Made by a program: the position numbers and the translations under genes. From NCBI GenBank assembly GCA_963712745.1, contig CAVQJC010000002.1, positions 64,001 to 128,000 on the forward strand: 64,000 nt of DNA, given 5' to 3'. Positions 15,687 to 64,000 of the stretch are shown piece after piece. The stretch comes from an uncultured Chloroflexia bacterium (GTDB lineage: Bacteria > Chloroflexota > Limnocylindria > Limnocylindrales > CSP1-4). The notes under the pieces were generated by a model. The model did not search any database, was not told the origin of the DNA, and was given only the letters and a program-made list of their open reading frames with translations. Within the stretch, counting starts at the first letter, position 1, and each line of letters opens with the position of its first letter.

Positions 15687-15948
15687 CCGGGCGGTCGGGC
15701 ATCGGGAGCCGGCCGTGTTCCCGTCCAACGGGACAACGCAACGCGGACCCGGGCGGTCGGGCACCGGGAGCCCGCCGTGTTCCCGTCCAGCGGGACAACG
15801 CAACGCGGACCCGGGCGGTCGGGCACCGGGAGCCCGCCGTGTTCCCGTTCAGCGGGACAACGCAACGCGGACCCGGGCGGTCGGGCACCGGGAGCCCGCC
15901 GTGTTCCCGTTCAGCGGGACAACGCAACGCGGACCCGGGCGGTCGGGC
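15687..15948. repeat. 61-bp tandem repeat (about 4.3 copies) carrying palindrome TTCCCGTYCARCGGGAC
   Basis: CCGGGCGGTCGGGCACCGGGAGCCCGCCGTGTTCCCGTTCAGCGGGACAACGCAACGCGGAC with period 61. Confidence 0.95.
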
Positions 15949-16015
15949 CCCTCCCTTCGCGTTGAACGGGAAGCCGTGTCACCGCGTCCCGCTCAGCGGC
16001 AAATAAGGTGCACCT

Positions 16016-16187
16016 CAGGCGCAGGGCGCGCCAGGTGCGGGCGCTGCACGCGTCGAGTTGTCCCGTTCAGCGGGAGGCAGCCAAGCTTACGAGCGCTCCA
16101 GGCGCAGGGCGCGCCAGGTGCGGGCGCTGCACGCGTCGAGTTGTCCCGTTCAGCGGGAGGCAGCCAAGCTTACGAGCGCTCCAGGCG
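16016..16187. repeat. 83-bp tandem repeat (2 copies) carrying the same palindrome
   Basis: CAGGCGCAGGGCGCGCCAGGTGCGGGCGCTGCACGCGTCGAGTTGTCCCGTTCAGCGGGAGGCAGCCAAGCTTACGAGCGCTC at 16016 and 16099. Confidence 0.95.
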
Positions 16188-25480: not shown

Positions 25481-25548
25481 GTGATCGAGGCAGCGGTCGC
25501 CCCCGCGAGCACGGAGGAGGCGATCGCATGGCCTGGCTTCTTCTCGGG

Positions 25549-26120
25549 TTCTCGCGCAGCGGGCCACCTCGACCGCGCGTGGTCGGCGTGCTGCGTCCAG
25601 CAGGACAGATGCGCACGGTCTTCCCGCTGAGCGAGACGCTGTGACGATCTATGCCGCCAGGCGCGAAGGATCGGGCCGGGAGCACGTCCCGAGGGTCGCG
25701 GGGGCGCGATGCACCTCGCGTTGGCCCGCTGAACGGGAGCGTCCCCAAGCCGACCCGGCGGACCCCCGGTCGCATCAGCCCTGGCCGACCGGCGGACCCC
25801 GGCAATTCCCGGATACCGGGCCGCTTCGGCCCAGTCCGCCATCAGGCCGATCGGACCCGAACCGTCACTGGGCCCAAGGCAGGCGCCGAGCGCACCGAGC
25901 ATCGCCGATGCCGGCTCTGCTGACCGTCTTCCCGCTGAGCGGGCCAACTCGACCGCAGATGCACGGGATGACGTGTCCAGCAGGTCAGATGCGTCGGCCC
26001 TTGCCGCTCAGCGGGACATCGTGTCGATTCCTGCCGCGACGCGGCGAGGATGGGACCGTCGGTACCTTCCGGGTGTGGTCGAGGGTGCGGAGCACGTCGC
26101 GTTGTCCCGCTGAACGAGAA
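25549..26120. repeat. Intergenic cluster of about 6 CCCGCTSARCGGG-type palindromes in two diverged ~190-bp units
   Basis: Motifs at about 25550, 25622, 25725, 25930, 26004 and 26105. Flanks GGGCCA.CTCGACCGC and GTCCAGCAGG.CAGATGCG recur at about 380 bp spacing. Confidence 0.8.
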
Positions 26121-26221
26121 CGACCCACGACGGGCGCCGGCCGGCACCGGGCCCAGGGCGGGTCCCGGGCGGAACGGGGGCGGCGCGTTCCACCGGCAGC
26201 GCCGGGGTAGACTCGGCCCAC

Positions 26222-42745: not shown

Positions 42746-42767
42746 GACCCTACCCCCCCCTCACTTG

Positions 42768-42842
42768 CGCGGGCCGGGTCCGCCAGTGGCTTGGCACGGT
42801 CCCGGCGGCCAGGGTATGGGCCGTGCCTCATCGCCTCCCGCG
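42768..42842 (-). ncRNA. c-di-GMP-II-like riboswitch (copy 1)
   Basis: CGCGGGAGGCGATGAGGCACGG...CCGCC...CCGTGCCAAGCCACTGGCGGACCCGGCCCGCG: P1, GATGA kink-turn strand, P3 and CCGCC/GGCGG pseudoknot, just 5' of the RBS. Confidence 0.75.
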
Positions 42843-42965
42843 TATGCGTGGATTCTCCCACTCGTGGCTATCAGGTCAGCCTGAGACCAGGTACCGGCTG
42901 CGTATCCACCAAGTGCGAGATGGGCCCAAGGGCGGCGGTGCTGCGGGACGCGCTGGGAATAAGAT

Positions 42966-44356: not shown

Positions 44357-44379
44357 GACAAGCCTCCTTCGGCTCATGC

Positions 44380-44452
44380 GCGGGTCGGGTCCGCCAGTGG
44401 CTCGGCGCGGCCCCGGCGGCCAGGGTGTGGGCCGCGCCTCATCGCCTCCCGC
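44380..44452 (-). ncRNA. c-di-GMP-II-like riboswitch (copy 2)
   Basis: GCGGGAGGCGATGAGGCGCGG...CCGCC...CCGCGCCGAGCCACTGGCGGACCCGACCCGC. P3 shows a compensatory change relative to copy 1. Confidence 0.78.
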
Positions 44453-44561
44453 TCTGCTGGGTATGACGCCACAGCAGTAGCAGGTCGTTCAAGAGGCGGA
44501 GGTCACGAAGGCTCGCGGCGCTGTTTTCAGGGGTCCGTGGCGCTGTCCTCAGTGCCCAGCC

Positions 44562-46265: not shown

Positions 46266-46359
<94 letters not shown>

Positions 46360-54639: not shown

Positions 54640-55122
54640 CTACCGGCCCAGGTGGAGCAGGCGCTTGCGCACACGGAACAGCGCGCGCTCGTCGGCACAG
54701 GCGACGAAGAGCGTGTCGTCGCCGGCGATGGTGCCGAGCACGTCGGGCCAGCGAGCGCGGTCGAGTGCGGCAGCGATGGCGTGGGCCGCACCCGGCACCG
54801 CGCGGATGACCAGCATGGAACCCGAGTGGCGGACGTCGACGGGCAGGTCGCTGAGCAGCTGGCGCAGGCGCTGCTCGCCCTCCAGCTCGACCGCGGCCTC
54901 AGCCGACGGCAGGGCGTACACCTGGGCCCCGGCCACGCGCACCTTGACCAGGCCCATCTCCGTGATGTCGCGACTGACGGTGGCCTGGGTCACACGGAAA
55001 CCCTTGTCCTGCAGAGCCGCCACCAGCTCGCGCTGGGTCCGCGGCCGCCGGTCGCGGACGACATCGGCGATGGCCTGCTGGCGGGCGCGCTTGAGGATCT
55101 CGCTCGTACCGCTGCGTGCCAT
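54640..55122 (-). CDS. argR: Arginine repressor
   Basis: TQATVSRD and GTIAGDDT motifs. Confidence 0.95.
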   Translation of the reverse strand: MARSGTSEILKRARQQAIADVVRDRRPRTQRELVAALQDKGFRVTQATVSRDITEMGLVKVRVAGAQVYALPSAEAAVELEGEQRLRQLLSDLPVDVRHSGSMLVIRAVPGAAHAIAAALDRARWPDVLGTIAGDDTLFVACADERALFRVRKRLLHLGR

Positions 55123-55124
55123 GG

Positions 55125-55955
55125 TCAGCCGTTCAGCAGGAGGAGCACGAGGAAGACGACGGCGGCGATGAGCCGGTAGACGATGAAGATGTAGGTGCTG
55201 TGATCGCGCAGGTAGCGCAGGAGCAGGCCGATGGCCAGCCAGCCGGAGACGGCCGCGGCGATGACCCCGGCCGCGAGCACGGCGATGTCGATGTCGCCCG
55301 CCCCACCACTGACGATGGTGCGTGTCTTCCACAGTCCGGCTCCAGCGATGATGGGGATGCCCATCAGGAAGGCGAAGCGCGCGGCAGCGTCGCGCTTGAG
55401 TCCGCGCGCGAGCCCGGCCGCGATGGTCACACCCGAGCGACTGATGCCGGGGAAGAGCGCGAAGGCCTGAGCCACGCCGATGACGGCAGCATCCGCGTAC
55501 TCGGTCTGCTCGAGGTCGCGCTCGCGGGTGCCGATGATCTCGCCCAGCCACAGGAGCCCTGCGCCGCCGACCAGGATGAACGGGATGACGATGACCGCGT
55601 CGTAGAAGAACTCGTCGATCCATTCCTCGAAGAGGAGGCCGAAGAGCGCAGCCGGGATGATCGTCAGCAGCAACACCAGCGAGAGCTTGCGATCGGGGTC
55701 GCCGCCGAAGGAACGCTCGCGCAGCAAGGCCACGAACGCCTTGACGAGCACGAGGACGTCGCGCCAGAAGTAGAGCAGCAGCGCCGCCAGCGTGCCCATG
55801 TGCAGCATGACCACGAACTCTGAGCTGTTGATGAGCGCGTCATCCCAGCCCAGGATCCGCGGCAGCACGATGAGGTGGGCAGAAGATGAGACCGGCAGGA
55901 ACTCGGTCAGCCCCTGCACGATACCGATGATGATGGCCTGGACGATCTCTTCCAA
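55125..55955 (-). CDS. uppP: Undecaprenyl-diphosphatase
   Basis: QGLTEFLPVSSSAH and PGISRSG motifs. Confidence 0.95.
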   Translation of the reverse strand: MEEIVQAIIIGIVQGLTEFLPVSSSAHLIVLPRILGWDDALINSSEFVVMLHMGTLAALLLYFWRDVLVLVKAFVALLRERSFGGDPDRKLSLVLLLTIIPAALFGLLFEEWIDEFFYDAVIVIPFILVGGAGLLWLGEIIGTRERDLEQTEYADAAVIGVAQAFALFPGISRSGVTIAAGLARGLKRDAAARFAFLMGIPIIAGAGLWKTRTIVSGGAGDIDIAVLAAGVIAAAVSGWLAIGLLLRYLRDHSTYIFIVYRLIAAVVFLVLLLLNG

Positions 55956-56060
55956 CCGCTCCTCCGATGGGCGACGGCGTCAGCCGGCGCTTTCTGAGGG
56001 TACCCGGGAATCGCACGAGCGCCGGTGAAGGCACCGGCGGTCGGTTCGGGCGAATCGCCC

Positions 56061-56145
56061 GGGTGGGTCGACAGGGCAGCTCGGTCGGGCGGGTCGACAG
56101 GGCAGCTCGGTCGGGCGGGTCGACTGGGCAGCTCGCTCGGGCGGG
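56061..56145. repeat. 26-bp tandem repeat (about 3.3 copies) between ndk and uppP
   Basis: GGGCGGGTCGACAGGGCAGCTCGGTC repeated. Confidence 0.9.
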
Positions 56146-56162
56146 GCCCGGGCAGCGCCTGC

Positions 56163-56615
56163 CTACTCCACGATCCAGGCGTCGATGGCACGCTCGTAGT
56201 CGAGCAACTCGGCGTCGTCGAACCAGAGGGCCAGTTCGGCGGCGGCGTTCTCGGAGCTGTCCGAAGCGTGGACGATGTTCATGCCGGTCTCGAGCGCGAA
56301 GTCACCGCGAATCGACCCGGGCGCGGCCTCGTTGGGGCGGGTGGCGCCGTTGATGGCGCGGCAGACCTCGATGGCCTTGGGACCTTCGACCGCCATGGCC
56401 ACGAGCGGGCCGGAGGTGATGAACTCGATGAGGCCGGCGAAGAACGGCTTGTCCGAGTGCACCGCGTAGTGGCGCTCGGCGAGCGAGCGCTCGGCCTGCA
56501 TGAGCTTGAGGCCGGCGACACGCAGGCCGCGCGCCTCGTAGCGATCGATGACGCGGCCGATGAGGGCGCGCTGAACGCCGTCGGGCTTGATCAGGATGAG
56601 GGTTCGCTCGCTCAC
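56163..56615 (-). CDS. ndk: Nucleoside diphosphate kinase
   Basis: IKPDGV, GSIRGDF and NIVHASDS motifs. Confidence 0.96.
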   Translation of the reverse strand: MSERTLILIKPDGVQRALIGRVIDRYEARGLRVAGLKLMQAERSLAERHYAVHSDKPFFAGLIEFITSGPLVAMAVEGPKAIEVCRAINGATRPNEAAPGSIRGDFALETGMNIVHASDSSENAAAELALWFDDAELLDYERAIDAWIVE

Positions 56616-58309
56616 ATGGGCTCCTTCGATGACGGCCCTTGACCCAGGGCCTGGTGCGCTGTTTGGTAGGCCGCGGCCGCCTCGGTGTCGCGTCCGAGGA
56701 AGCGGTAGGCATCACCTCTGACGAGATGGATGGCCGCCAGGTCGGCGCTGCCGGGAGGGGCGGCGGAAGCGGCTCGGTCGGCTGCCGACAGGATGATAGG
56801 GGCCAGCGCCGGGTCCAGCCGCAGGAGCACGGCCAGTCGCTGGACGGCCGCGCGGATGTCGCCGGCATCGAGGGCACGGTCGACAGTCTCGAGTTCCGCA
56901 CCGGCGAGGCGTCCGCTAATGACCACCGCGCCGGTACTGCTGGCACCGCCCGGCAGCATCGGTCCGCCACGGCCAACGGGCACGGGGAGCGGGGCCGTGA
57001 GCGGAGCCGGGATCGGCTGGACGATGGGCTCGAGTCGCCAGGTCTCGGGGGTAGGCGCCGTGACCTCGCTGCCGCCGGCCAACAGGCCCCAGTGGCCGGG
57101 CTCTGCCGCCCCGGTCATCATCCAGCCCTCGTCGGCCGGGGGCCAGGCCTGGCTGCGCGGCTCCAGTGCGAAGAGGACGTCGATGGCGCCGCCGACTCGC
57201 TCCTGTACCGACACTGCGGTGGTTCGAGCGTCGGCGTCCTGTTCGCTGCCGGCCAGTTCCTCGGCCAGGATCAGGGCAGCCAGGGGCTCGTCGCCGCCCG
57301 ACGCCTGGTGAGCGCGCGCGGCCTCGGCCGCACCCAGGAGGTCCCCGCTGCGCCAGCGCACCTCGGCGAGGTCGGCCATGGCTTCGCGGTCCAGGGTCCC
57401 ATCACCAGCCATGCCCTCGAGCCGGGCCCGCGACAGCGTGAGCAGGCCTCCACGAAGGTGTACGCGCGCGAGGCGTGCGTCCGCGGAGCGGCTCGCGACC
57501 GCGGCCTGGTCGTCCGTGGGGCCGGGGAGCGGCGCATCGGACGTCGCCGCCGGCATCGTCAGCGGCACCGAGCCTCCGGGGCGTGGACGCGATGGAGCCG
57601 GTCGAGGTCCCGACGGCTCGGGCGCAGCAGGTGGCGCAGGCCGCGCAGGCGGAGACGGACGCGCCGTCCCAGGAGCCGGCGGCATCGGAGCGGAGCGGGT
57701 CATGCCCGGTGGCGGTGGCGGCCCGGCGTACCGCGGGGGCGGCGGGCCTGGATATGCACCCGGCGCCGGGCCGGGGTACGGGCCGGGCGGCGGCATGGCA
57801 CCCGACGGTGTCATGGCACCCCGCGGTGGCATGCCGGGGCCACGTGCGACGTTGGGTGGCGGCGGCATGCCGGGGCCCATGGGCATGCCTGGACGCGGCG
57901 GCATCGGACGGCCCGCCGGTGGCGGACCCGGCGGCATGGGACCCGGTAGCCCCGCGGCGGGTGGCATGGGACCGGGTGGCATGGGACCGGGTGGCATGCG
58001 CGCGGGTGGCATGCGCGCGGGCGACACGGGCGTGGGGCCGCCCGGCTGCCCAGGCGGGGCCGGCGTGCCGGGCTGGGTCGTGGCGTCCGGCTCAGGCGGG
58101 AACCCTGATGGCGTCGCGTCGTCCGACTCGGCGATCGGGCCAGGCTCGGCCGCGCTGCCTGATTCATTCGAGACGCCCGGATCAGGCCCCTCGGCCGGGC
58201 TGCTCGGCTCGTTTCGGACAACCGGATCAGGCCCCTCGGCCGCAAGATCCCCCTTGGGCCAGTCGGCCGGCTGCTTCGGCCCTTCCCGCTTGGGCTGTTC
58301 CTCACTCAT
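56612..58309 (-). CDS. Hypothetical protein: Pro/Gly/Met-rich disordered N-half plus TPR-like helical C-half
   Basis: PPGPM repeats; C-terminal HLVRGDAYRFLGRDTEAAAAY. Translationally coupled between the peptidase and ndk. Confidence 0.7.
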   Translation of the reverse strand: MSEEQPKREGPKQPADWPKGDLAAEGPDPVVRNEPSSPAEGPDPGVSNESGSAAEPGPIAESDDATPSGFPPEPDATTQPGTPAPPGQPGGPTPVSPARMPPARMPPGPMPPGPMPPAAGLPGPMPPGPPPAGRPMPPRPGMPMGPGMPPPPNVARGPGMPPRGAMTPSGAMPPPGPYPGPAPGAYPGPPPPRYAGPPPPPGMTRSAPMPPAPGTARPSPPARPAPPAAPEPSGPRPAPSRPRPGGSVPLTMPAATSDAPLPGPTDDQAAVASRSADARLARVHLRGGLLTLSRARLEGMAGDGTLDREAMADLAEVRWRSGDLLGAAEAARAHQASGGDEPLAALILAEELAGSEQDADARTTAVSVQERVGGAIDVLFALEPRSQAWPPADEGWMMTGAAEPGHWGLLAGGSEVTAPTPETWRLEPIVQPIPAPLTAPLPVPVGRGGPMLPGGASSTGAVVISGRLAGAELETVDRALDAGDIRAAVQRLAVLLRLDPALAPIILSAADRAASAAPPGSADLAAIHLVRGDAYRFLGRDTEAAAAYQTAHQALGQGPSSKEPM

Positions 58310-59568
58310 GGCAGTCGCAAGGCCCCCTCAAGGCTGCCGGCTTCGAGGTTCGGACCGATGACCGCAGCGCACAGGGCTTCGTCGCGGAATAGCCGGCCGG
58401 CCAGTGCCCGGATGTCGTCTGCAGTCACCCCTCGCAACGCCTCGATCACCTCTTCCATCGTCATCACGCGCTCGTGCAGAGCCTCCTGGCTGCCCAGGAA
58501 CGACGACACGGCGCGTGACTCCTCCAGCCTTAGCTCCAGCCGGCCGATCGTGTAGTTGCGAGCTCGTTCGAGCTCTGCGGCCGGAACCGCCTCGTCACGC
58601 AATCGTGCCAGCTCCGAGAGCACGCCCCGGGTCGCCGGTACGACGTCATCGGCATCGACGCCCATGTATACCTGAAGCAGGCCCGTATCAGCGTAGTCCG
58701 TCTGGAATGAGTGCACGTCGTAGGACAGCCCGTCCTCCTCGCGGATCTTCATGAACAGCCGCGAGGACGTGCCGTCTCCGAGGATGGTGTTGAGCAGGTC
58801 CAGCGTCCACTGGTCAGCGTGATCGCGAGGCAGGGCGGGGACACCGATGCACACGTGCGCCTGGGCAGTGTGCCGATGATCGAGTCGCATGCGCTCGAGC
58901 GGGCCTGCCGGTGCCGGCTCGTATGCCTGGGCCACACCGTTCCCACGGCCGAAGTGCCGCTGGACCAAGTCCACGGCTTCGTCGTGGCCGATGTCGCCCG
59001 CCAGCGAAACGACCATGTTGGAGGGCTGGTAGGCGGCAGCCCAGAAGTCGCGGATGTCCACGTCGGTCAGCGAGCGCACCGACTCCTCGTCGCCGGCGAT
59101 CTCCCAGCCCAACGGCGTGTCGCCGAAGAAGGCCTCGTCCCAGATGTTGTAGATGAACTGGGCCGGATCGTCGCGATAGGAGCGGATCTCGTCGACGATG
59201 ATCTCGCGCTCGTGGGCGATGTCCGCGCTGCGGAGTCGCGGGTGCAGTGTCAGCTCCGAGAGGACGTGGACGGCACGATCGGCCTCGCGGATCGGCAGCC
59301 GTGCCCAGTAGACGGTGACTTCGCGATCGGTGGCCGCGTTCGAGCTGCCGCCGACCCCTTCGATGGCGTCCGAGACCTCCCGGGTCGTCACGAGGTCGCG
59401 CGTGCCCTTGAACGTGATGTGCTCCATGAAGTGCGCGAGGCCCGACTTCGCGCGCGTCTCGCCGCGTGAGCCGACCATGACGTACACGGCCACCGACAGC
59501 GAGCGCATGCCGGGCAGACGGGCGGTGATGACGCGCGGCCCATCGGGCAGCTCGGTACGTTCGAACAT
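58306..59568 (-). CDS. M16 family (pitrilysin-like) zinc peptidase
   Basis: GLAHFMEH, NAAT and SSRLFMKIRE motifs. Confidence 0.92.
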   Translation of the reverse strand: MFERTELPDGPRVITARLPGMRSLSVAVYVMVGSRGETRAKSGLAHFMEHITFKGTRDLVTTREVSDAIEGVGGSSNAATDREVTVYWARLPIREADRAVHVLSELTLHPRLRSADIAHEREIIVDEIRSYRDDPAQFIYNIWDEAFFGDTPLGWEIAGDEESVRSLTDVDIRDFWAAAYQPSNMVVSLAGDIGHDEAVDLVQRHFGRGNGVAQAYEPAPAGPLERMRLDHRHTAQAHVCIGVPALPRDHADQWTLDLLNTILGDGTSSRLFMKIREEDGLSYDVHSFQTDYADTGLLQVYMGVDADDVVPATRGVLSELARLRDEAVPAAELERARNYTIGRLELRLEESRAVSSFLGSQEALHERVMTMEEVIEALRGVTADDIRALAGRLFRDEALCAAVIGPNLEAGSLEGALRLP

Positions 59569-59667
59569 CGGGGCGCCATCGTACACGGGCTTGCCCTGTC
59601 GACCCTGCGGCACCCAGTCGCAACGTGCCGGCGCGCGTGTGGGGTGGGCTGCACATCGCGCGGCTGA

Positions 59668-59741
59668 GCCGCGGCGTGGTCGTGTGGTCGCTGAGTTGCG
59701 GGGCTAGGCCGCGGCGTGGTCGTGTGGTCGCTGAGTTGCGG
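59668..59741. repeat. 40-bp tandem duplication
   Basis: GCCGCGGCGTGGTCGTGTGGTCGCTGAGTTGCGG occurs twice. Confidence 0.9.
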
Positions 59742-59768
59742 CGCGGTCGCGGGCTCGCTGGGTCTCCA

Positions 59769-60020
59769 TTCCCGTTCAACGGGACAACGCAACCCGTTCG
59801 CGACCCGGACTGATCGGCTCGTTGCGTCAGACGGGAAGAAGGGACCTGATGTCCCGCTCAACGGGACGTCCGCGCGAATCCCACGTCCGGCATGTCCAGA
59901 TGTCCCGCTCAACGGGACGTCCGCGCGAATCCCACGTCCGGCATGTCCAGATGTCCCGCTCAACGGGACGTCCGCGCGAATCCCACGTCCGGCATGTCCA
60001 GATGTCCCGCTCAACGGGAC
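59769..60020. repeat. Palindrome copy (59769) plus 51-bp tandem array (3.4 copies from 59848) with GTCCCGCTCAACGGGAC
   Basis: GATGTCCCGCTCAACGGGACGTCCGCGCGAATCCCACGTCCGGCATGTCCA at 59848, 59899 and 59950, with a partial copy at 60001. Confidence 0.95.
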
Positions 60021-60113
60021 AACGGCTCTGCCGAATGGTCGGCCCAGCCAGGACCGGTTCGCCGATCGCCCTGAACGACGACCTTGGGTGACGGCCGGGG
60101 GGAGGGCGAGACC

Positions 60114-60767
60114 CTAGAGGAGGATGACCGAGTCTCCGCCAGGATCCCGAGAAGCCGCCAGTCGCTCGAGTGCGATCGCACCGGGGACTGGGAAGTCGGC
60201 ATGGAAGCCCGCGCCGGCCCCTCGCATGAAGGCACGGTTGTGCCGCGTGTCCGAGAGAAGGAGGATGAGGTGGTCGACTCCACCGTCGCGGCGCTTCAGC
60301 ACCAGGCGGCGCTGCAACGCCTGAGAGTCGCGCGCCCGCGTCTCCGCCTCCACGCCGATCCGCACGGGCGGCATACGGATGAGCGCGTCCCACGCCCTGC
60401 GGTCCCGCACGTTCGGCAAGGGGACCTCCGTCTGCCACAGGATCTCCTCCCCAAGGCGAACCCGCAGTCGCTCGAGCAGGGCCAGGTGGGCACGGTCGCG
60501 CAGCGCGTCGCCACCGGGGTAGGCGCGCACTCGGAGGTCGAGTCCGACCGCGGCCGCGGCTCGAACGAAGTCTGTCAGCGGCAGGAACGGCGATTGGCCT
60601 CGCTCGAGCCGACTCCAGGCCGAGACGGACTTGCCGACCGCGCCACTCACGGAGCGCTGGCTCAGGTTCCGGTCCAGCCGGGCCTCTCGTATCTCCCGGC
60701 CGAGGTCCATGACGATCAGGCGGGCGACCCTTCGCGCCCGGTCGTCGCTGCGCTCATGTCCTGACAT
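60114..60767 (-). CDS. XRE-type HTH fused to a putative PD-(D/E)XK/Vsr-like endonuclease domain
   Basis: LGREIREARLDRNLSQRSVSGAVGKSVSAWSRLERG (HTH), then TEVP...RAWDALI...IGVEAET (E..D..ExE). Confidence 0.7.
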   Translation of the reverse strand: MSGHERSDDRARRVARLIVMDLGREIREARLDRNLSQRSVSGAVGKSVSAWSRLERGQSPFLPLTDFVRAAAAVGLDLRVRAYPGGDALRDRAHLALLERLRVRLGEEILWQTEVPLPNVRDRRAWDALIRMPPVRIGVEAETRARDSQALQRRLVLKRRDGGVDHLILLLSDTRHNRAFMRGAGAGFHADFPVPGAIALERLAASRDPGGDSVILL

Positions 60768-60926
60768 GGGTGCGATGGTGACGGTCGGCCCTTACCTGGC
60801 GCTTCACTCGACCGTATCCGGGTGCATGTCTACATTGCGTGTCCTGGGTCGAAGCAGTTGGCGTGTTCCTCCTCGCAGGCCGGTGTCAGGCGGCGAGGAG
60901 GTCTCGTCCAGGGGCTTGACCGGCGC

Positions 60927-61078
60927 GTTCCCGTTCAGCGGGAGAAGTCGACGTCATCGAGCCTGGGTATGCCGCGGCCATTGCGCTCAGTGCAACGGAC
61001 GGACAGTGCGTCCCGTTCAATGGGAATCCAAGACCGAATCGGGAGTTGGTGTGTCGCGTTGTCCCGCTCAGCGAGAAC
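60927..61078. repeat. Three to four further palindrome copies upstream of the HTH-nuclease gene
   Basis: TTCCCGTTCAGCGGGA (60928), TTGCGCTCAGTGCAA (60981), GTCCCGTTCAATGGGA (61010) and GTCGCGTTGTCCCGCTCAGCGAGAAC (61053). Confidence 0.8.
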
Positions 61079-61091
61079 CGGTTCAGGGGCA

Positions 61092-61233
61092 CGCGGCAGG
61101 GGCCCGCAGGTGCGCGGCAGGGCACGCAGGAAGGGCACGCAGAAGCAGGATGCGCAGGTGCGCGGCAGGGGCCCGCAGGTGCGCGGCAGGGCACGCAGGA
61201 ATGGCACGCAGAAGCAGGATGCGCAGGTGCGCG
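61092..61233. repeat. 69-bp tandem duplication rich in GCAGG
   Basis: CGCGGCAGGGGCCCGCAGGTGCGCGGCAGGGCACGCAGGAA.GGCACGCAGAAGCAGGATGCGCAGGTG at 61092 and 61161. Confidence 0.9.
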
Positions 61234-61285
61234 CGGCAGACCCAAGTGGCCGCAGGGCTCAGGCCCCGGGCTCCGGCCGTAGGGC

Positions 61286-61828
61286 TCAGGCCTCCGTGCC
61301 GGCCTCCCCGGACTCGGCCGCTGGCGGGCCCTCTCCGGCCGGCGGACCCTCGCCGGCGCCGGAGCCGTCATCGTCGGCTGCCGTGCTCCCGCCCTCGACC
61401 GACTCGGCGGTGTCGAACGCGCCAAGCTCCATCTGGATGTAGCCGGGCGCGACCTGGAACGGCAGCGGCTCCTGCACGACCTCCTCGCCTTCGCCACCCG
61501 GCGGTGGCACGAACTCGAGCACCACGCGCTCATCGCTCTGCACCAGGGTGTAGGTGATGAGCTGATCGGGCCGCGTCTCGAACTCGAGGTGCTCCCAGGA
61601 GGCCACCGAAAGGCAGATGGAGAGGGGCGTGAAGAAGGAGGAGACGTCGGGCCGGTCGGCCACGATGCGCTCGACCCAGCCGGTCCCATGCGACACGACC
61701 TCGCGTCCACGGACGTAGCGGTAGGCCACGGTCTGGCGCAGCAGCGGCCGCAGCAGGTGATAGATGTCGACGGGGTTCGAGACCAGCCCAGCGTTGACGA
61801 AGAACTTGGCCGGCAGCTCCCTCGACAC
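61286..61828 (-). CDS. Hypothetical protein
   Basis: GGGAGG RBS plus GTG; globular N-part with an acidic tail; coding-like bias. Confidence 0.7.
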   Translation of the reverse strand: MSRELPAKFFVNAGLVSNPVDIYHLLRPLLRQTVAYRYVRGREVVSHGTGWVERIVADRPDVSSFFTPLSICLSVASWEHLEFETRPDQLITYTLVQSDERVVLEFVPPPGGEGEEVVQEPLPFQVAPGYIQMELGAFDTAESVEGGSTAADDDGSGAGEGPPAGEGPPAAESGEAGTEA

Positions 61829-61998
61829 GCACCCTCCCGCAGCATGCGGCCCGCGTCCGCTTCGGACCATTCGACGACGTCGCGGCCGATGGTATCGCAG
61901 AGTCCTGCCCCTCGGCCCGCCCCCGTCGCACTCCGTCGGACTCCGCCGCAGCCGCCATGCACCGGCCGAGCCTGCCTCACGGGCCTATCATCGGCAGC

Positions 61999-62823
61999 GT
62001 GATCCTGGCAGTGGACATCGGCAACAGCGCCGCCAAGGCCGCACTCGTGGATGGGGCGAGCATCCTCGCGTCGGGCCGGCTGGACACGTCCTCGGCCAGT
62101 ACGGAGGACCTAGCCGACGGGCTGCGCGTGCTCACCGGCAGACCCGAGGAAGCGCCCACCCGCATCATCACGGTCAGCGTCGTGGACCGCTGGACCGAAC
62201 GACTGGAGCACGTGGCCGACGAGCTGGGCCTCCCGCTCACCGTCGTCGCGGCCAGCCATATCCCCATCAGCACCGCGCTGGTGCGCCCGGACCAGACCGG
62301 CCCCGACCGCCTCATCGCGGCCTGGGCAGCGGCGCAGCTGCACGGCACGCCGGTCATCGTGGTCGACCTGGGTACGGCCACCACTGTCGATGCCGTCGAT
62401 GCCGACGGCTTCTTCCTGGGCGGGGCCATCCTGCCGGGCCTGGGCCTCGCCGCCGACTCGCTTGCCGAAGGCACGGCCCGCCTGCCGCGTGTCGAGCCCG
62501 CGTTGCCGCCAGACGCCATCGGCAGCGACACCACCTCTGCCATCGCCAGCGGCGTGGTCTTCGGTCATATCGGTGCCGTACGCGAGCTCGCCCTGCGCAT
62601 GCATGAGCGCATCGAGCCCGGCACCCCCCGGCGGGCGCCGACCAAGGTCGTCGTCACCGGCGGCTATGCTGCAGCCGCGTGGGCCGAGGCCGCCTGGCGC
62701 GCACCCGCCGCAGCAGGTTTGCCGGCCATCGCCGACGTGCTCGACCCCGATCTCGTGCTGCGCGGGCTCGGCCTGCTCGCCGAGCACATGGGCGCGCGGC
62801 CATCCGCAGGAGCCACCCGATGA
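61999..62823 (+). CDS. coaX: Type III pantothenate kinase
   Basis: LAVDIGNS, GPDR, VDLGTATT and GGAILPG motifs. Confidence 0.93.
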   Translation: MILAVDIGNSAAKAALVDGASILASGRLDTSSASTEDLADGLRVLTGRPEEAPTRIITVSVVDRWTERLEHVADELGLPLTVVAASHIPISTALVRPDQTGPDRLIAAWAAAQLHGTPVIVVDLGTATTVDAVDADGFFLGGAILPGLGLAADSLAEGTARLPRVEPALPPDAIGSDTTSAIASGVVFGHIGAVRELALRMHERIEPGTPRRAPTKVVVTGGYAAAAWAEAAWRAPAAAGLPAIADVLDPDLVLRGLGLLAEHMGARPSAGATR

Positions 62824-64000
62824 CCGACCAGACCAACCCCAAGCCCGCCGACCGTCCGCTCCAGGGACGGTTGATCCTGCTCGGCGTGACCGGCTCCATC
62901 GCCGCCTACAAGGGGGCCGAGTTGCTGCGCGAGTTCGTCCGCGCAGGAGCCGAGGTACAGGTGATGATGAGCGAGGCCGCGACCCACTTCATCGGCACGC
63001 TGACGATGGAGGCGCTCTCAGGACGGGCGGTCATGCTCGACCCCCTCGAGCTGCAGTCCGACAGCCGTATCGGGCACATCGTCGCCGCCGACGCGGCCGA
63101 CGCCATCCTCGTCGCGCCCGCCACAGCCCGCTGGCTGGGGGCCATGGCCAACGGCCTGGCCAACGACGTCATCACCGCCACCTGCCTGGCCTCGAGTGCG
63201 CCGGTGGTGGTGGCGCCGGCCATGGACGGCGACATGTACGTCCATCCGGCCACCGTGGCCAACGTGGCCCGGCTGCGCGAGTTCGGCTACACCATCGTCG
63301 ACCCCGACACCGGCGCCCTGGCCTCTGGACAGGAAGGCATCGGCCGGCTCGTCGACCTGCCCACGCTGGTCGAGGCCGTGACGCAGGCCATCACCGGACG
63401 AGCCATTCGCCAGCCCGATCCCGCGTCCCGGCCGCCGCGTTTCGAGCCTCCACGTGAGGCCGACCTTGCGGGCATGCATCTCGTCGTCAGCGCCGGCGGC
63501 AACGCCGAGCCCATCGACCCGGTGCGCTTCATCGGCAACCGCTCCAGCGGCAAGATGGGCATGGCCATCGCGGCGGCGGCCATGGCCCGGGGCGCGCGCG
63601 TGACCCTGGTCAAGGGCACGACCAGCGTCGAACCGCCCGCCGGCGCGGACGTGGTGGAGGCCGAGACGGCCGCTGCCATGCGCGAGGCCGTCCTGGGCGC
63701 CCTCCCCACCGCCGATGCCCTGATCATGGCCGCAGCAGTGGCCGACTTCCGCCCCATCGACAGCGCGAGCGCCAAGATCGCCCGTGCCGATGGCCTCGAC
63801 CTGCGCCTGGAGCCAACGACGGACATCCTGGCCGAGGCTGCGGCCCGGGCACGCGCGACCGGCGAGGGTCCCACCGCGCGCCCGGTCATCGTCGGCTTCG
63901 CGGCCGAGACCGGCTCGCTCGATCGCGCTCCTGAGAAAGCCGCGCGCAAGGGCGTCGACCTGCTGGTGGCCAACGACGTGTCCGAGCCCGGATCGGGCTT
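62820..64000 (+). CDS. coaBC: Bifunctional phosphopantothenoylcysteine decarboxylase/ligase; runs off the window
   Basis: GVTGSIAAYK, APATA, PAMDGDM, EPIDPVRFIGNRSSGKMG, VGFAAET and ANDV motifs. Confidence 0.95.
   Translation, partial: MTDQTNPKPADRPLQGRLILLGVTGSIAAYKGAELLREFVRAGAEVQVMMSEAATHFIGTLTMEALSGRAVMLDPLELQSDSRIGHIVAADAADAILVAPATARWLGAMANGLANDVITATCLASSAPVVVAPAMDGDMYVHPATVANVARLREFGYTIVDPDTGALASGQEGIGRLVDLPTLVEAVTQAITGRAIRQPDPASRPPRFEPPREADLAGMHLVVSAGGNAEPIDPVRFIGNRSSGKMGMAIAAAAMARGARVTLVKGTTSVEPPAGADVVEAETAAAMREAVLGALPTADALIMAAAVADFRPIDSASAKIARADGLDLRLEPTTDILAEAAARARATGEGPTARPVIVGFAAETGSLDRAPEKAARKGVDLLVANDVSEPGSG

Follow-up and report, generated by a model that had tools for sequence, protein, structure and literature searches.

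To our knowledge, repetitive extragenic palindromes (REPs) and REPINs are the only well-studied bacterial repeat populations that are long-lived and vertically inherited, and all cases known to us depend on an HUH-type REP-associated tyrosine transposase (RAYT). In a stretch of 64,000 nucleotides from an uncultured Chloroflexia bacterium (GenBank assembly GCA_963712745.1, contig CAVQJC010000002.1, positions 64,001 to 128,000; called the window in the following), short palindromes surround a gene for a 217-amino-acid (aa) protein with an XRE-type helix-turn-helix (HTH) and a predicted nuclease domain, and we were interested whether this gene and the palindromes form a similar partnership, as proposed in an initial annotation made from the sequence alone. 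The window is part of contig C2 of a 4.2-Mb, 20-contig metagenome-assembled genome (MAG) with 68.5% GC, referred to as G000. Modules of four palindromes bracket the gene, are spread over intergenic regions of G000 and bracket homologous genes in other genomes, while some paralogs carry palindromes of their own; the protein combines its HTH with a predicted restriction-endonuclease-like domain and highly conserved acidic residues. We estimate a probability of about 0.5 that gene and palindromes constitute one REPtron-like system built on a different, new protein type. They are linked by association, and that the 217-aa protein would bind and cut the modules and drive their spread is what we infer.

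Palindromes, modules and paralog-specific repeats

The 13-mer CCCGYTSARCGGG occurs 12 times in the window (0.10 expected; none of 100 shuffled sequences reached 12), and the 15-mer TCCCGYTSARCGGGA was found 21 times when up to two mismatches were allowed (1.06 expected). Five palindromes downstream of the gene agree with the initial annotation, which had counted three to four upstream, where three were detected; of its gene-free copies, eight at 15.7-16.2 kb were recovered, and five instead of 'about six' at 25.6-26.1 kb. The near identity claimed between the unit at 59769 and that at 15.7 kb amounts to 24 of 25 matching bases. Genome-wide, 30 exact copies of CCCGYTSARCGGG were counted, and since all 12 on contig C2 fall inside the window, the recurring palindromes are concentrated here and not evenly dispersed, as the description as a dispersed family had implied. 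A looser scan found clusters on eight contigs of G000.

The palindromes described singly at first are real, but turned out to be parts of a larger module. The extended unit GTTG-TCCCG-N5-CGGGA recurs as inverted pairs 128-170 bp apart, and alignment of 26 such pairs from G000 and three further genomes (G001, G010 and G049) led to a module of about 150-170 bp with four TCCCG-N5-CGGGA palindromes at 51-30-51 bp spacing and inverted 24-nt ends. Its consensus reads TTCCCG-N5-CGGGAC-AAC..GAC, about 25 nt, TCCCG-N5-CGGGA and 15 nt in the first part, followed by TCCCG-N5-CGGGAAG, about 30 nt and GGTCG.GTTG-TCCCG-N5-CGGGAA in the second. In the alignment the stems are kept, loops and spacers are free, flanks are unrelated and bounds are sharp, and the feature conserved across genomes is the 5-bp stem pair TCCCG/CGGGA around a variable 5-nt centre. 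Centre-to-centre spacings of 51 bp (n=38), 30 bp (n=21) and 61/62 bp (n=6) are near five, three and six helical turns, respectively.

A profile of the module (nhmmer) matched 21 loci in G000, four of which had belonged to its seed alignment and five of which lie in the window, with one full module on each side of the HTH-nuclease gene (Table 1). This gene is located within the only inverted pair of end units more than 200 bp apart in G000; no other gene is so enclosed. The 51-bp tandem array on its 3' side amplifies inner module units, accounts for four of the five downstream palindrome copies, and bears a CAAC extension on its last unit. The gene-free clusters, suspected from the beginning to be copies, contain complete versions of the module that brackets the gene. 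The 15.7-kb cluster is composed of three to four 62-bp tandem end units, a full module and an 83-bp duplicated end unit, and its flanking gene was detected in only 4 of 49 genomes. All 21 modules were at least 85% noncoding under a mask based on GC content at third codon positions, which marked 82% as coding, and nine are found between convergent, eight between tandem and four between divergent genes (background of 582, 2148 and 580 intergenic regions, respectively), a bias to convergent gene ends that is REP-like.

Intergenic enrichment, which the initial annotation had suggested to examine genome-wide, was also obtained from an unbiased screen, in which every 5-bp stem with loops of 0-8 nt was ranked by noncoding enrichment across G000. 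The top two palindromes were GTGCA-N5-TGCAC (20/22 noncoding) and TCCCG-N5-CGGGA (24/30 noncoding). The former is an extended form of TGCAC-N3-GTGCA, 11 copies of which flank a paralog of the HTH-nuclease gene (C15:33884-34534; product 67% identical to the window protein), and palindromes of the GTGCA type also occur in gene-free clusters on contigs C11, C17 and C20. Similarly, a more distant family member on C12 is directly followed by four GTCGC-N5-GCGAC units at 51-bp spacing, copies of which are also dispersed elsewhere, and a paralog on C17 has local tandem repeats with CCCAT-N5-ATGGG. As a control, 25 of 1144 random windows of 3.65 kb (2.2%) hold at least four copies of one exact palindrome. 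A search for Y1_Tnp (PF01797; RAYT/IS200) gave no match in G000, which is 84.6% complete, while the control search was positive in 6 of 14 known genomes.

Several other assignments of the repeats were rejected. The 51- and 62-bp arrays carry identical 'spacers' instead of unique ones, indicating tandem duplications and not a CRISPR array. Structured single-stranded DNA was discarded as the upstream module folds no better than shuffled sequences (z -0.59), which favours recognition as duplex, and Rfam gave no match at gathering thresholds at the three palindrome clusters. A CGAC/GTCG tag common to all palindrome families was considered as well; it was present in only 7 of 24 TCCCG and 12 of 20 GTGCA units (15% of other noncoding palindromes), counts that are inflated by tandem copies, and was retained only as a feature of module end units. 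The plain TCCCG-N5-CGGGA count failed as a genus-wide marker: genome G047 has 55 sites, yet only two extended units and no family protein, and 12 plain sites inspected there were coding-looking and showed neither the extended consensus nor clustering.

Further repeats were noted beside these families. In the GTGCA-N5-TGCAC arrays, which have periods of 39+53, 41 or 51-52 bp, GAGTCCGAC often comes after the unit, and the GTCGC family has a long imperfect stem. A different conserved element, roughly ggcccTTGACCCGCTGAGCGGGGcgcgGAGGATGa, has the same 13-mer core as the modules, looks promoter- or leader-like and lies outside the module family. Twelve copies of GTCGCCGGCCGCGAC at C6:256179-259403 with alternating spacing of about 200 and 400 bp were flagged as coding and probably reflect a large repetitive protein gene outside the HTH-nuclease system.

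Table 1. Coordinates of the gene, palindromes, modules and related repeats (window positions unless a contig of G000 is given)
Feature	Position	Details
HTH-nuclease gene	60114..60767	minus strand; open reading frame, 217-aa product
TCCCGYTSARCGGGA copies downstream of gene (n=5)	59770, 59852, 59903, 59954, 60005	
TCCCGYTSARCGGGA copies upstream of gene (n=3)	60929, 61011, 61062	spacing 82 + 51 bp
TCCCGYTSARCGGGA copies, gene-free cluster (n=8)	15719-16158	
TCCCGYTSARCGGGA copies, gene-free region (n=5)	25622-26119	25622, 25724, 25930, 26002, 26105
Four-palindrome module, 3' side of gene	59755..59917	nhmmer E 2.2e-20; palindromes 59770, 59852, 59903
Outer end of 3'-side module, TTCCCGTTCAACGGGACAACGCAAC	starting at 59769	
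51-bp tandem array, four palindrome units	59852..60019	partial module match 59941-60019, E 4.9e-07
Four-palindrome module, 5' side of gene	60915..61085	nhmmer E 1.3e-11
Outer end of 5'-side module, GTCGCGTTG-TCCCGCTCAGCGAGA	61053-61076	
Gene-free cluster between convergent genes	15712..16163	full module 15898-16078, nhmmer E 4.7e-20
Gene-free module, weaker copy	25539..25746	divergent intergenic region; nhmmer E 8.6e-09
Gene-free module	25922..26133	same divergent intergenic region as 25539..25746; nhmmer E 1.4e-15
Gene-free GTGCA-N5-TGCAC arrays	C11:335413-335757, C17:107851-107917, C17:281536-281632, C20:550091-550260	
Third palindrome family, tagc-GTCGC-N5-GCGAC-gcctggcta	C12:57751-57918, C11:323738, C4:285514-285724, C5:9818-10029	
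ggcccTTGACCCGCTGAGCGGGGcgcgGAGGATGa-type element	C1:113232, C8:4560, C10:37638, C10:50122, C10:173675, C17:17957, C17:164512, C17:170430	

The HTH-nuclease protein and its family

The open reading frame, the HTH and the three motifs TEVP, AWDAL and VEAET of the initial annotation were all found in the 217-aa protein. Residues 21-82 matched HTH_31 (PF13560) with 42.3 bits (curated cut-off of 27), and the five-helix lambda-repressor-like fold of this part also agrees with the XRE family. AlphaFold2 modelled the whole protein with a confidence score (pLDDT) of 94.0 and residues 89-217 alone with a pLDDT of 93.2 and a pTM of 0.88, leading to an N-terminal half (residues ~7-86) with an N-terminal helix and the HTH, and a C-terminal half (residues ~92-217) predicted as a PD-(D/E)XK-fold domain with E114, D127, E140 and E142. 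The model of the C-terminal domain shows an alpha-beta-beta-beta-alpha-beta core (H4-14, E22-28, E37-44, E47-54, H60-74 and E78-83, in the numbering of this model), in which strands 1, 2 and 3 carry E114, D127 and E140-x-E142, respectively.

In a structural search independent of Foldseek, the best matches of the C-terminal domain were AF1548 (Z 9.6, root mean square deviation 3.1, 101 residues aligned), XisH (Z 9.0), NucS (Z 8.2) and Card1 (Z 8.1), followed by Can2, Bax1, Hjc, SdaI, Vsr and TnsA; nearly all of the top 50 have the restriction-endonuclease-like fold, and every leading one is a PD-(D/E)XK nuclease. Foldseek against the PDB gave no match at E ≤0.001 for the model of the whole protein or of the C-terminal domain, and its list for the latter, led by McrC, AF1548 and BamHI, has weak E-values of at least 0.027. 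BamHI at rank 3 is 22% identical over 76 columns (E 0.042), and the ExE arrangement here recalls its active site with E111 and E113. The core and the acidic residues on strands 1-3 are shared with BamHI, NucS, AF1548, XisH and Can2/Card1, whereas a family match at sequence level is confined to the HTH: residues 90-217 matched no Pfam, NCBIfam, PADLOC or PHROGs model, a sequence-profile search of the PDB matched the HTH and nothing else, and the ESM Atlas returned Chloroflexota clusters without names and nothing else. No transposase family was matched by the protein in Pfam or NCBIfam, and neither a methyltransferase nor a sensor domain is attached or adjacent to the gene.

Alignment of 59 members showed R30, D91, D127, D147, Q149, R153, D161 and P209 to be invariant and E114, E140, E142, K158 and R160 to be at least 90% conserved, and across 42 C-terminal domains E114, D127, E140 and E142 are invariant. 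D127 and E140-x-E142 are thus kept, but the lysine position of the D...(D/E)-x-K motif holds a glutamate. Two distant two-domain members in G000, C12:56881-57660 and C14:53715-54593 (hhalign probabilities of 97.3% and 98.0%), have the canonical D...E-L-K. The nuclease fold expected for the C-terminal domain is supported by the models, and its acidic residues are conserved.

Structural matches of the HTH were HipB, C.BclI and C.AhdI at Z 9.3-10.2. A homodimer model reached a score of 0.72 (best of three controls 0.00), passing a mark that 20 of 30 proteins with structures solved as one-chain pairs, and 1 of 23 with structures solved as single chains, also reach; as solved structures of XRE dimers exist, likeness may explain the pass. 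The runs agreed in at least 75% of contacts with a partner pLDDT of at least 83, and the predicted interface consists of residues 4-29 and 60-86, suggesting dimerisation through the HTH half.

The family comprises 1269 clusters (50% identity) at E ≤1e-3 and 770 at E ≤1e-10. In a collection of species representatives 327 loci were found, and the best 80 of these belong almost only to MAGs of Limnocylindria/Chloroflexota. Within the genus of the window's genome, a match at E ≤1e-40 was obtained in 36 of 49 genomes, and no member was found among 16 genomes of a sister family with 1.1-Mb genomes. Several copies per genome are frequent, as are truncated or frameshifted ones, and gene-bearing copies are 43-67% identical as paralogs.

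Homologous loci and the insertion site

Modules were also found at homologous genes. Sites of the TCCCG type (up to one mismatch; background of 0.3 per homolog locus) were present beside homologs in G013:C16 (10 sites), G049:C5 (9), G059:C13 (7), G054:C26 (5) and G042:C231 (4). With the module profile, the G049 gene was found to have a full module at either side (E about 1e-35), and modules were also detected beside the G059, G054 and G042 genes. None of these four loci has M16 or coaX, the neighbours in the window, nearby; G049, G042 and G010 share one gene context and G059 and G054 another, both unlike that of the window.

Other homologs are flanked by other palindromes. A homolog with 40% identity in G001:C14 (L084; 153041-156688) has 13 copies of ACCCG-N5-CGGGT on both sides, with at least four units upstream and an array of ten with a period of about 62 bp downstream, which is the largest private array seen. 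TTGCA/TGCAT sites of the same 5-N5-5 form were observed for G060 homologs, and GACCG, GTGCC, GTGCG, TTCCG, TCGAC, GCCCG and ATACG for others. The recognition helix G-[KR]-S-x-S-[AT]-W pairs with TCCCG sites in five loci, and [IV]-D-R-S with GTGC-type sites in four of five, both small and non-independent samples. At least four exact copies of a palindrome were present at 10 of 47 homolog loci, a set in which one locus occurs twice, and at 11 of 78 loci of a wider, overlapping set from which L145 (AT run) and L178 (Ns) had been dropped. Genome-wide counts of end units were 31 in G000, 32 in G001, 29 in G010 and 26 in G049, at most 12 in the remaining genomes and 0-3 in controls.

The site between M16 and coaX occurs both empty and filled, a comparison already proposed in the initial annotation. 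The gene block up565-M16-hyp194-coaX is conserved, and in three of 12 copies (window, G014 and G013) the HTH gene is found between M16 and hyp194; G006 provides a fourth filled M16 site. Filled gaps measure about 1.65-1.8 kb, with the gene plus modules reflecting an insertion of about 1.7 kb, while the nine blocks without the gene have gaps of about 10-435 bp (tblastn boundaries). The M16-hyp194 site is a repeat hot spot, as its gap contains, without the gene, palindromes of the ACCCG/GCCCG type in G001 and G010 and other tandem repeats in G021. The HTH gene shows 63-71% aa identity and its neighbours 83-90%, indicating its faster evolution. In four public read runs, contigs cover both gene and upstream module, differ little or not at all from the window and confirm the gene-module junctions. 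The only joint in these contigs is a 40-bp skip within the 42-bp tandem repeat (59667-59708) in one run, leading to a single copy.

One of the gene-free blocks belongs to G000 itself, where contig C1 has a second copy that is diverged. The two block copies (C1:463000-472000 and window 55000-64000), one of them with the HTH insertion, show about 73-76% aa identity, and may stem from two related organisms binned together (contamination 5%) or from a true duplication. Unrelated tandem repeats are located just outside the modules at 59640-59740 (about 42 bp, two copies) and 61090-61230 (about 77 bp, two copies). The open reading frame of 565 aa at 56612-58309 (minus strand) has a very proline-rich N-terminal half and is syntenic upstream of the M16 peptidase genus-wide. 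Elsewhere in the window, two c-di-GMP-II-GCG riboswitch aptamers (42763-42847 and 44374-44458, minus strand; 67.5 and 59.1 bits, Rfam threshold 47.9) and tRNA genes at 1877-2048 and 46273-46359 were detected.

A proposed REPtron-like system and its alternatives

In REPtrons (RAYT/TnpA-REP with an HUH Y1 transposase), as described in PMC3337134, PMC3116915, 10.1101/2022.05.22.493013 and PMC3733652, short GC-rich palindromic repeats likewise enclose a single-copy gene and are also dispersed intergenically as inverted doublets mainly at gene 3' ends, and several gene-repeat pairs per genome are inherited mostly vertically and with loss. In contrast, the protein described here joins an XRE HTH to a predicted PD-(D/E)XK domain instead of HUH/Y1, with Y1_Tnp not found in G000; the module consensus lacks GTAG and has the heads TTCCCG and GGTCG.GTTG; the unit is a four-palindrome module with fixed spacing and not a REP doublet; the copy number is low (21 modules); and recognition is probably via duplex DNA rather than single-stranded hairpins. 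REPs have been divided into a GTAG-tagged group linked to RAYTs and a CGTC-tagged group without dedicated transposase (PMC3733652), and the modules fit neither definition. They resemble the CGTC-tagged REPs (Di Nocera et al. 2013) as palindromic intergenic repeats, mostly head-to-head dimers, for which no dedicated transposase is known according to PMC3733652, and cGTCG forms the head of about half of our end units. However, the stem of CGTC REPs has 8-9 bp starting with A/T pairs directly after the tag, with a 4-5-nt loop and a CCA tail (PMC3733652), whereas here the stem (TCCCG) has 5 bp, GTCG is 5 nt away from it, a CCA tail is missing and the phylum is different. Pairs of miniature inverted-repeat transposable elements and autonomous insertion sequences are similar in that the ends of a short non-coding element, which form terminal inverted repeats, recur in a longer copy with a gene; in contrast to these pairs, the gene here belongs to no known transposase class, a target-site duplication was not seen, and each family has only one, diverged copy with a gene.

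If both parts belong together, a protein dimer held via the N-terminal helix and the XRE HTH would read one 15-bp duplex site, in which a free centre of 5 bp separates the half-sites TCCCG and CGGGA. Each module of about 150-170 bp with its inverted 24-nt ends would contain four of these dimer sites, about 5, 3 and 5 helical turns apart, and the PD-(D/E)XK domain, with a BamHI-like E..D..ExE site, might cut or nick at or near the module. Modules would be copied in trans to new intergenic sites, while the gene would stay in single copy between two modules.

A number of results weigh against such a system. In the protein, a glutamate stands in place of the catalytic lysine known from the classic motif. 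Concerning the modules, no target-site duplication was evident at the ends of the 26 aligned ones, near-identical whole modules were not seen at different sites of G000, thus giving no sign of recent movement, and the mask behind the noncoding assignment is crude. The bin has the contamination mentioned above, and none of the public contigs of the four runs, with thin coverage and short contigs, joins across gene or module. For two of the six family members in G000, those on C1 and C14, a private palindrome was not evident. Homologs are flanked by palindromes, as the initial annotation had expected, in some cases and with paralog-specific types, but 37 of 47 loci have fewer than four exact copies. 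No module adjoins the two homologs nearest to the window protein (71% identity), which occupy the same M16 site in G006 and G014, and both genomes are free of end units; the G010 locus orthologous to that in G049 contains the gene in 5'-truncated form, with both modules missing or decayed. In the protein tree TCCCG-flanked proteins form no resolved clade and the G059/G054 pair groups with palindrome-free loci; the window-like clade collapses to a star, so that the tree speaks neither for nor against co-divergence. Finally, equal abundance of the motif in genomes lacking the gene, named at the outset as an argument against the link, was partly observed: G001 and G010 match G000 in end units, and no intact family gene was found near any of these, only truncated window-like copies. 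This pattern fits equally with a persistence of repeats after gene loss, as proposed for REPINs, or with independence from the gene.

Such independence is the core of the first alternative, in which a selfish or accessory nuclease gene of the homing-endonuclease, solitary restriction-like or defence type inserts into, or survives in, repeat-rich intergenic hot spots, the modules are spread by another agent or by recombination, and the protein has no action on them. The M16-hyp194 site with its other repeats but no gene in G001, G010 and G021, the 29-32 end units kept beside truncated genes only, the faster divergence of the HTH gene and the common truncated and frameshifted copies all agree with this explanation. 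Nevertheless, the repeats at each paralog are one private family and no mixture, homologs in three or more gene contexts are bracketed by one and the same module, and the palindromes ranked first and second for noncoding enrichment across G000 are exactly those at two paralogs. Moreover, no other candidate for a mobiliser was found in G000, neither Y1_Tnp nor another gene within inverted end units, and PADLOC matches nothing beyond the HTH, and we regard this explanation as unlikely.

Palindromic operators, often near the gene of the regulator itself, are the usual targets of XRE HTH proteins, which bind them as dimers. The palindromes could accordingly be helically phased, cooperative operators of a transcription or nucleoid regulator, with the nuclease-like domain serving oligomerisation or ligand sensing and the modules being non-mobile regulon or structural sites. 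This is consistent with the predicted dimer, the spacings of 30, 51 and 61 bp close to whole helical turns, the poor single-stranded folding of the module and the location of 4 of 21 modules in divergent promoter regions. However, the acidic residues of the putative nuclease site are invariant family-wide, which would argue for catalysis, 9 of 21 modules are located between convergent gene ends compared to 18% of intergenic regions, and sharp ends, inverted termini, tandem amplification and presence or absence among relatives are hallmarks of inserted elements, making a mere regulator rather improbable. A coincidence in a lineage rich in intergenic tandem and palindromic repeats, some of them beside a multi-copy gene family, would explain the many unrelated tandem repeats in the genome, two of them beside the HTH-nuclease gene, and the majority of homolog loci without repeated palindromes, but is very improbable given the 10 of 47 homolog loci compared to 2.2% of random windows, the same module tied to homologs in several genomes and contexts, and the result of the unbiased screen.

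From the association of gene and modules, the predicted fold, and the filled and empty sites, the interpretation as an analogue of REPs and RAYTs is partly supported, and in the openly searchable full text of main articles no paper was found that links an XRE or restriction-endonuclease-fold protein to REP-like repeats. Going further, and only tentatively, the family may represent a new prokaryotic class of mobile or domesticated elements, in which a dimeric HTH-PD-(D/E)XK nuclease unrelated to HUH, DDE, serine and tyrosine enzymes would read 5-N5-5 duplex palindromes and propagate four-site modules in trans, with specificities (TCCCG, GTGCA, ACCCG, GTCGC and others) set by few residues of the recognition helix, as an independent analogue of REPIN-RAYT in Limnocylindria (Chloroflexota). 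If this is true, a REPIN-like lifestyle would have evolved more than once, which would hint at where the missing partners of orphan repeats could be sought, and the family would comprise small (217 aa) nucleases whose site preference apparently varies with few residues.

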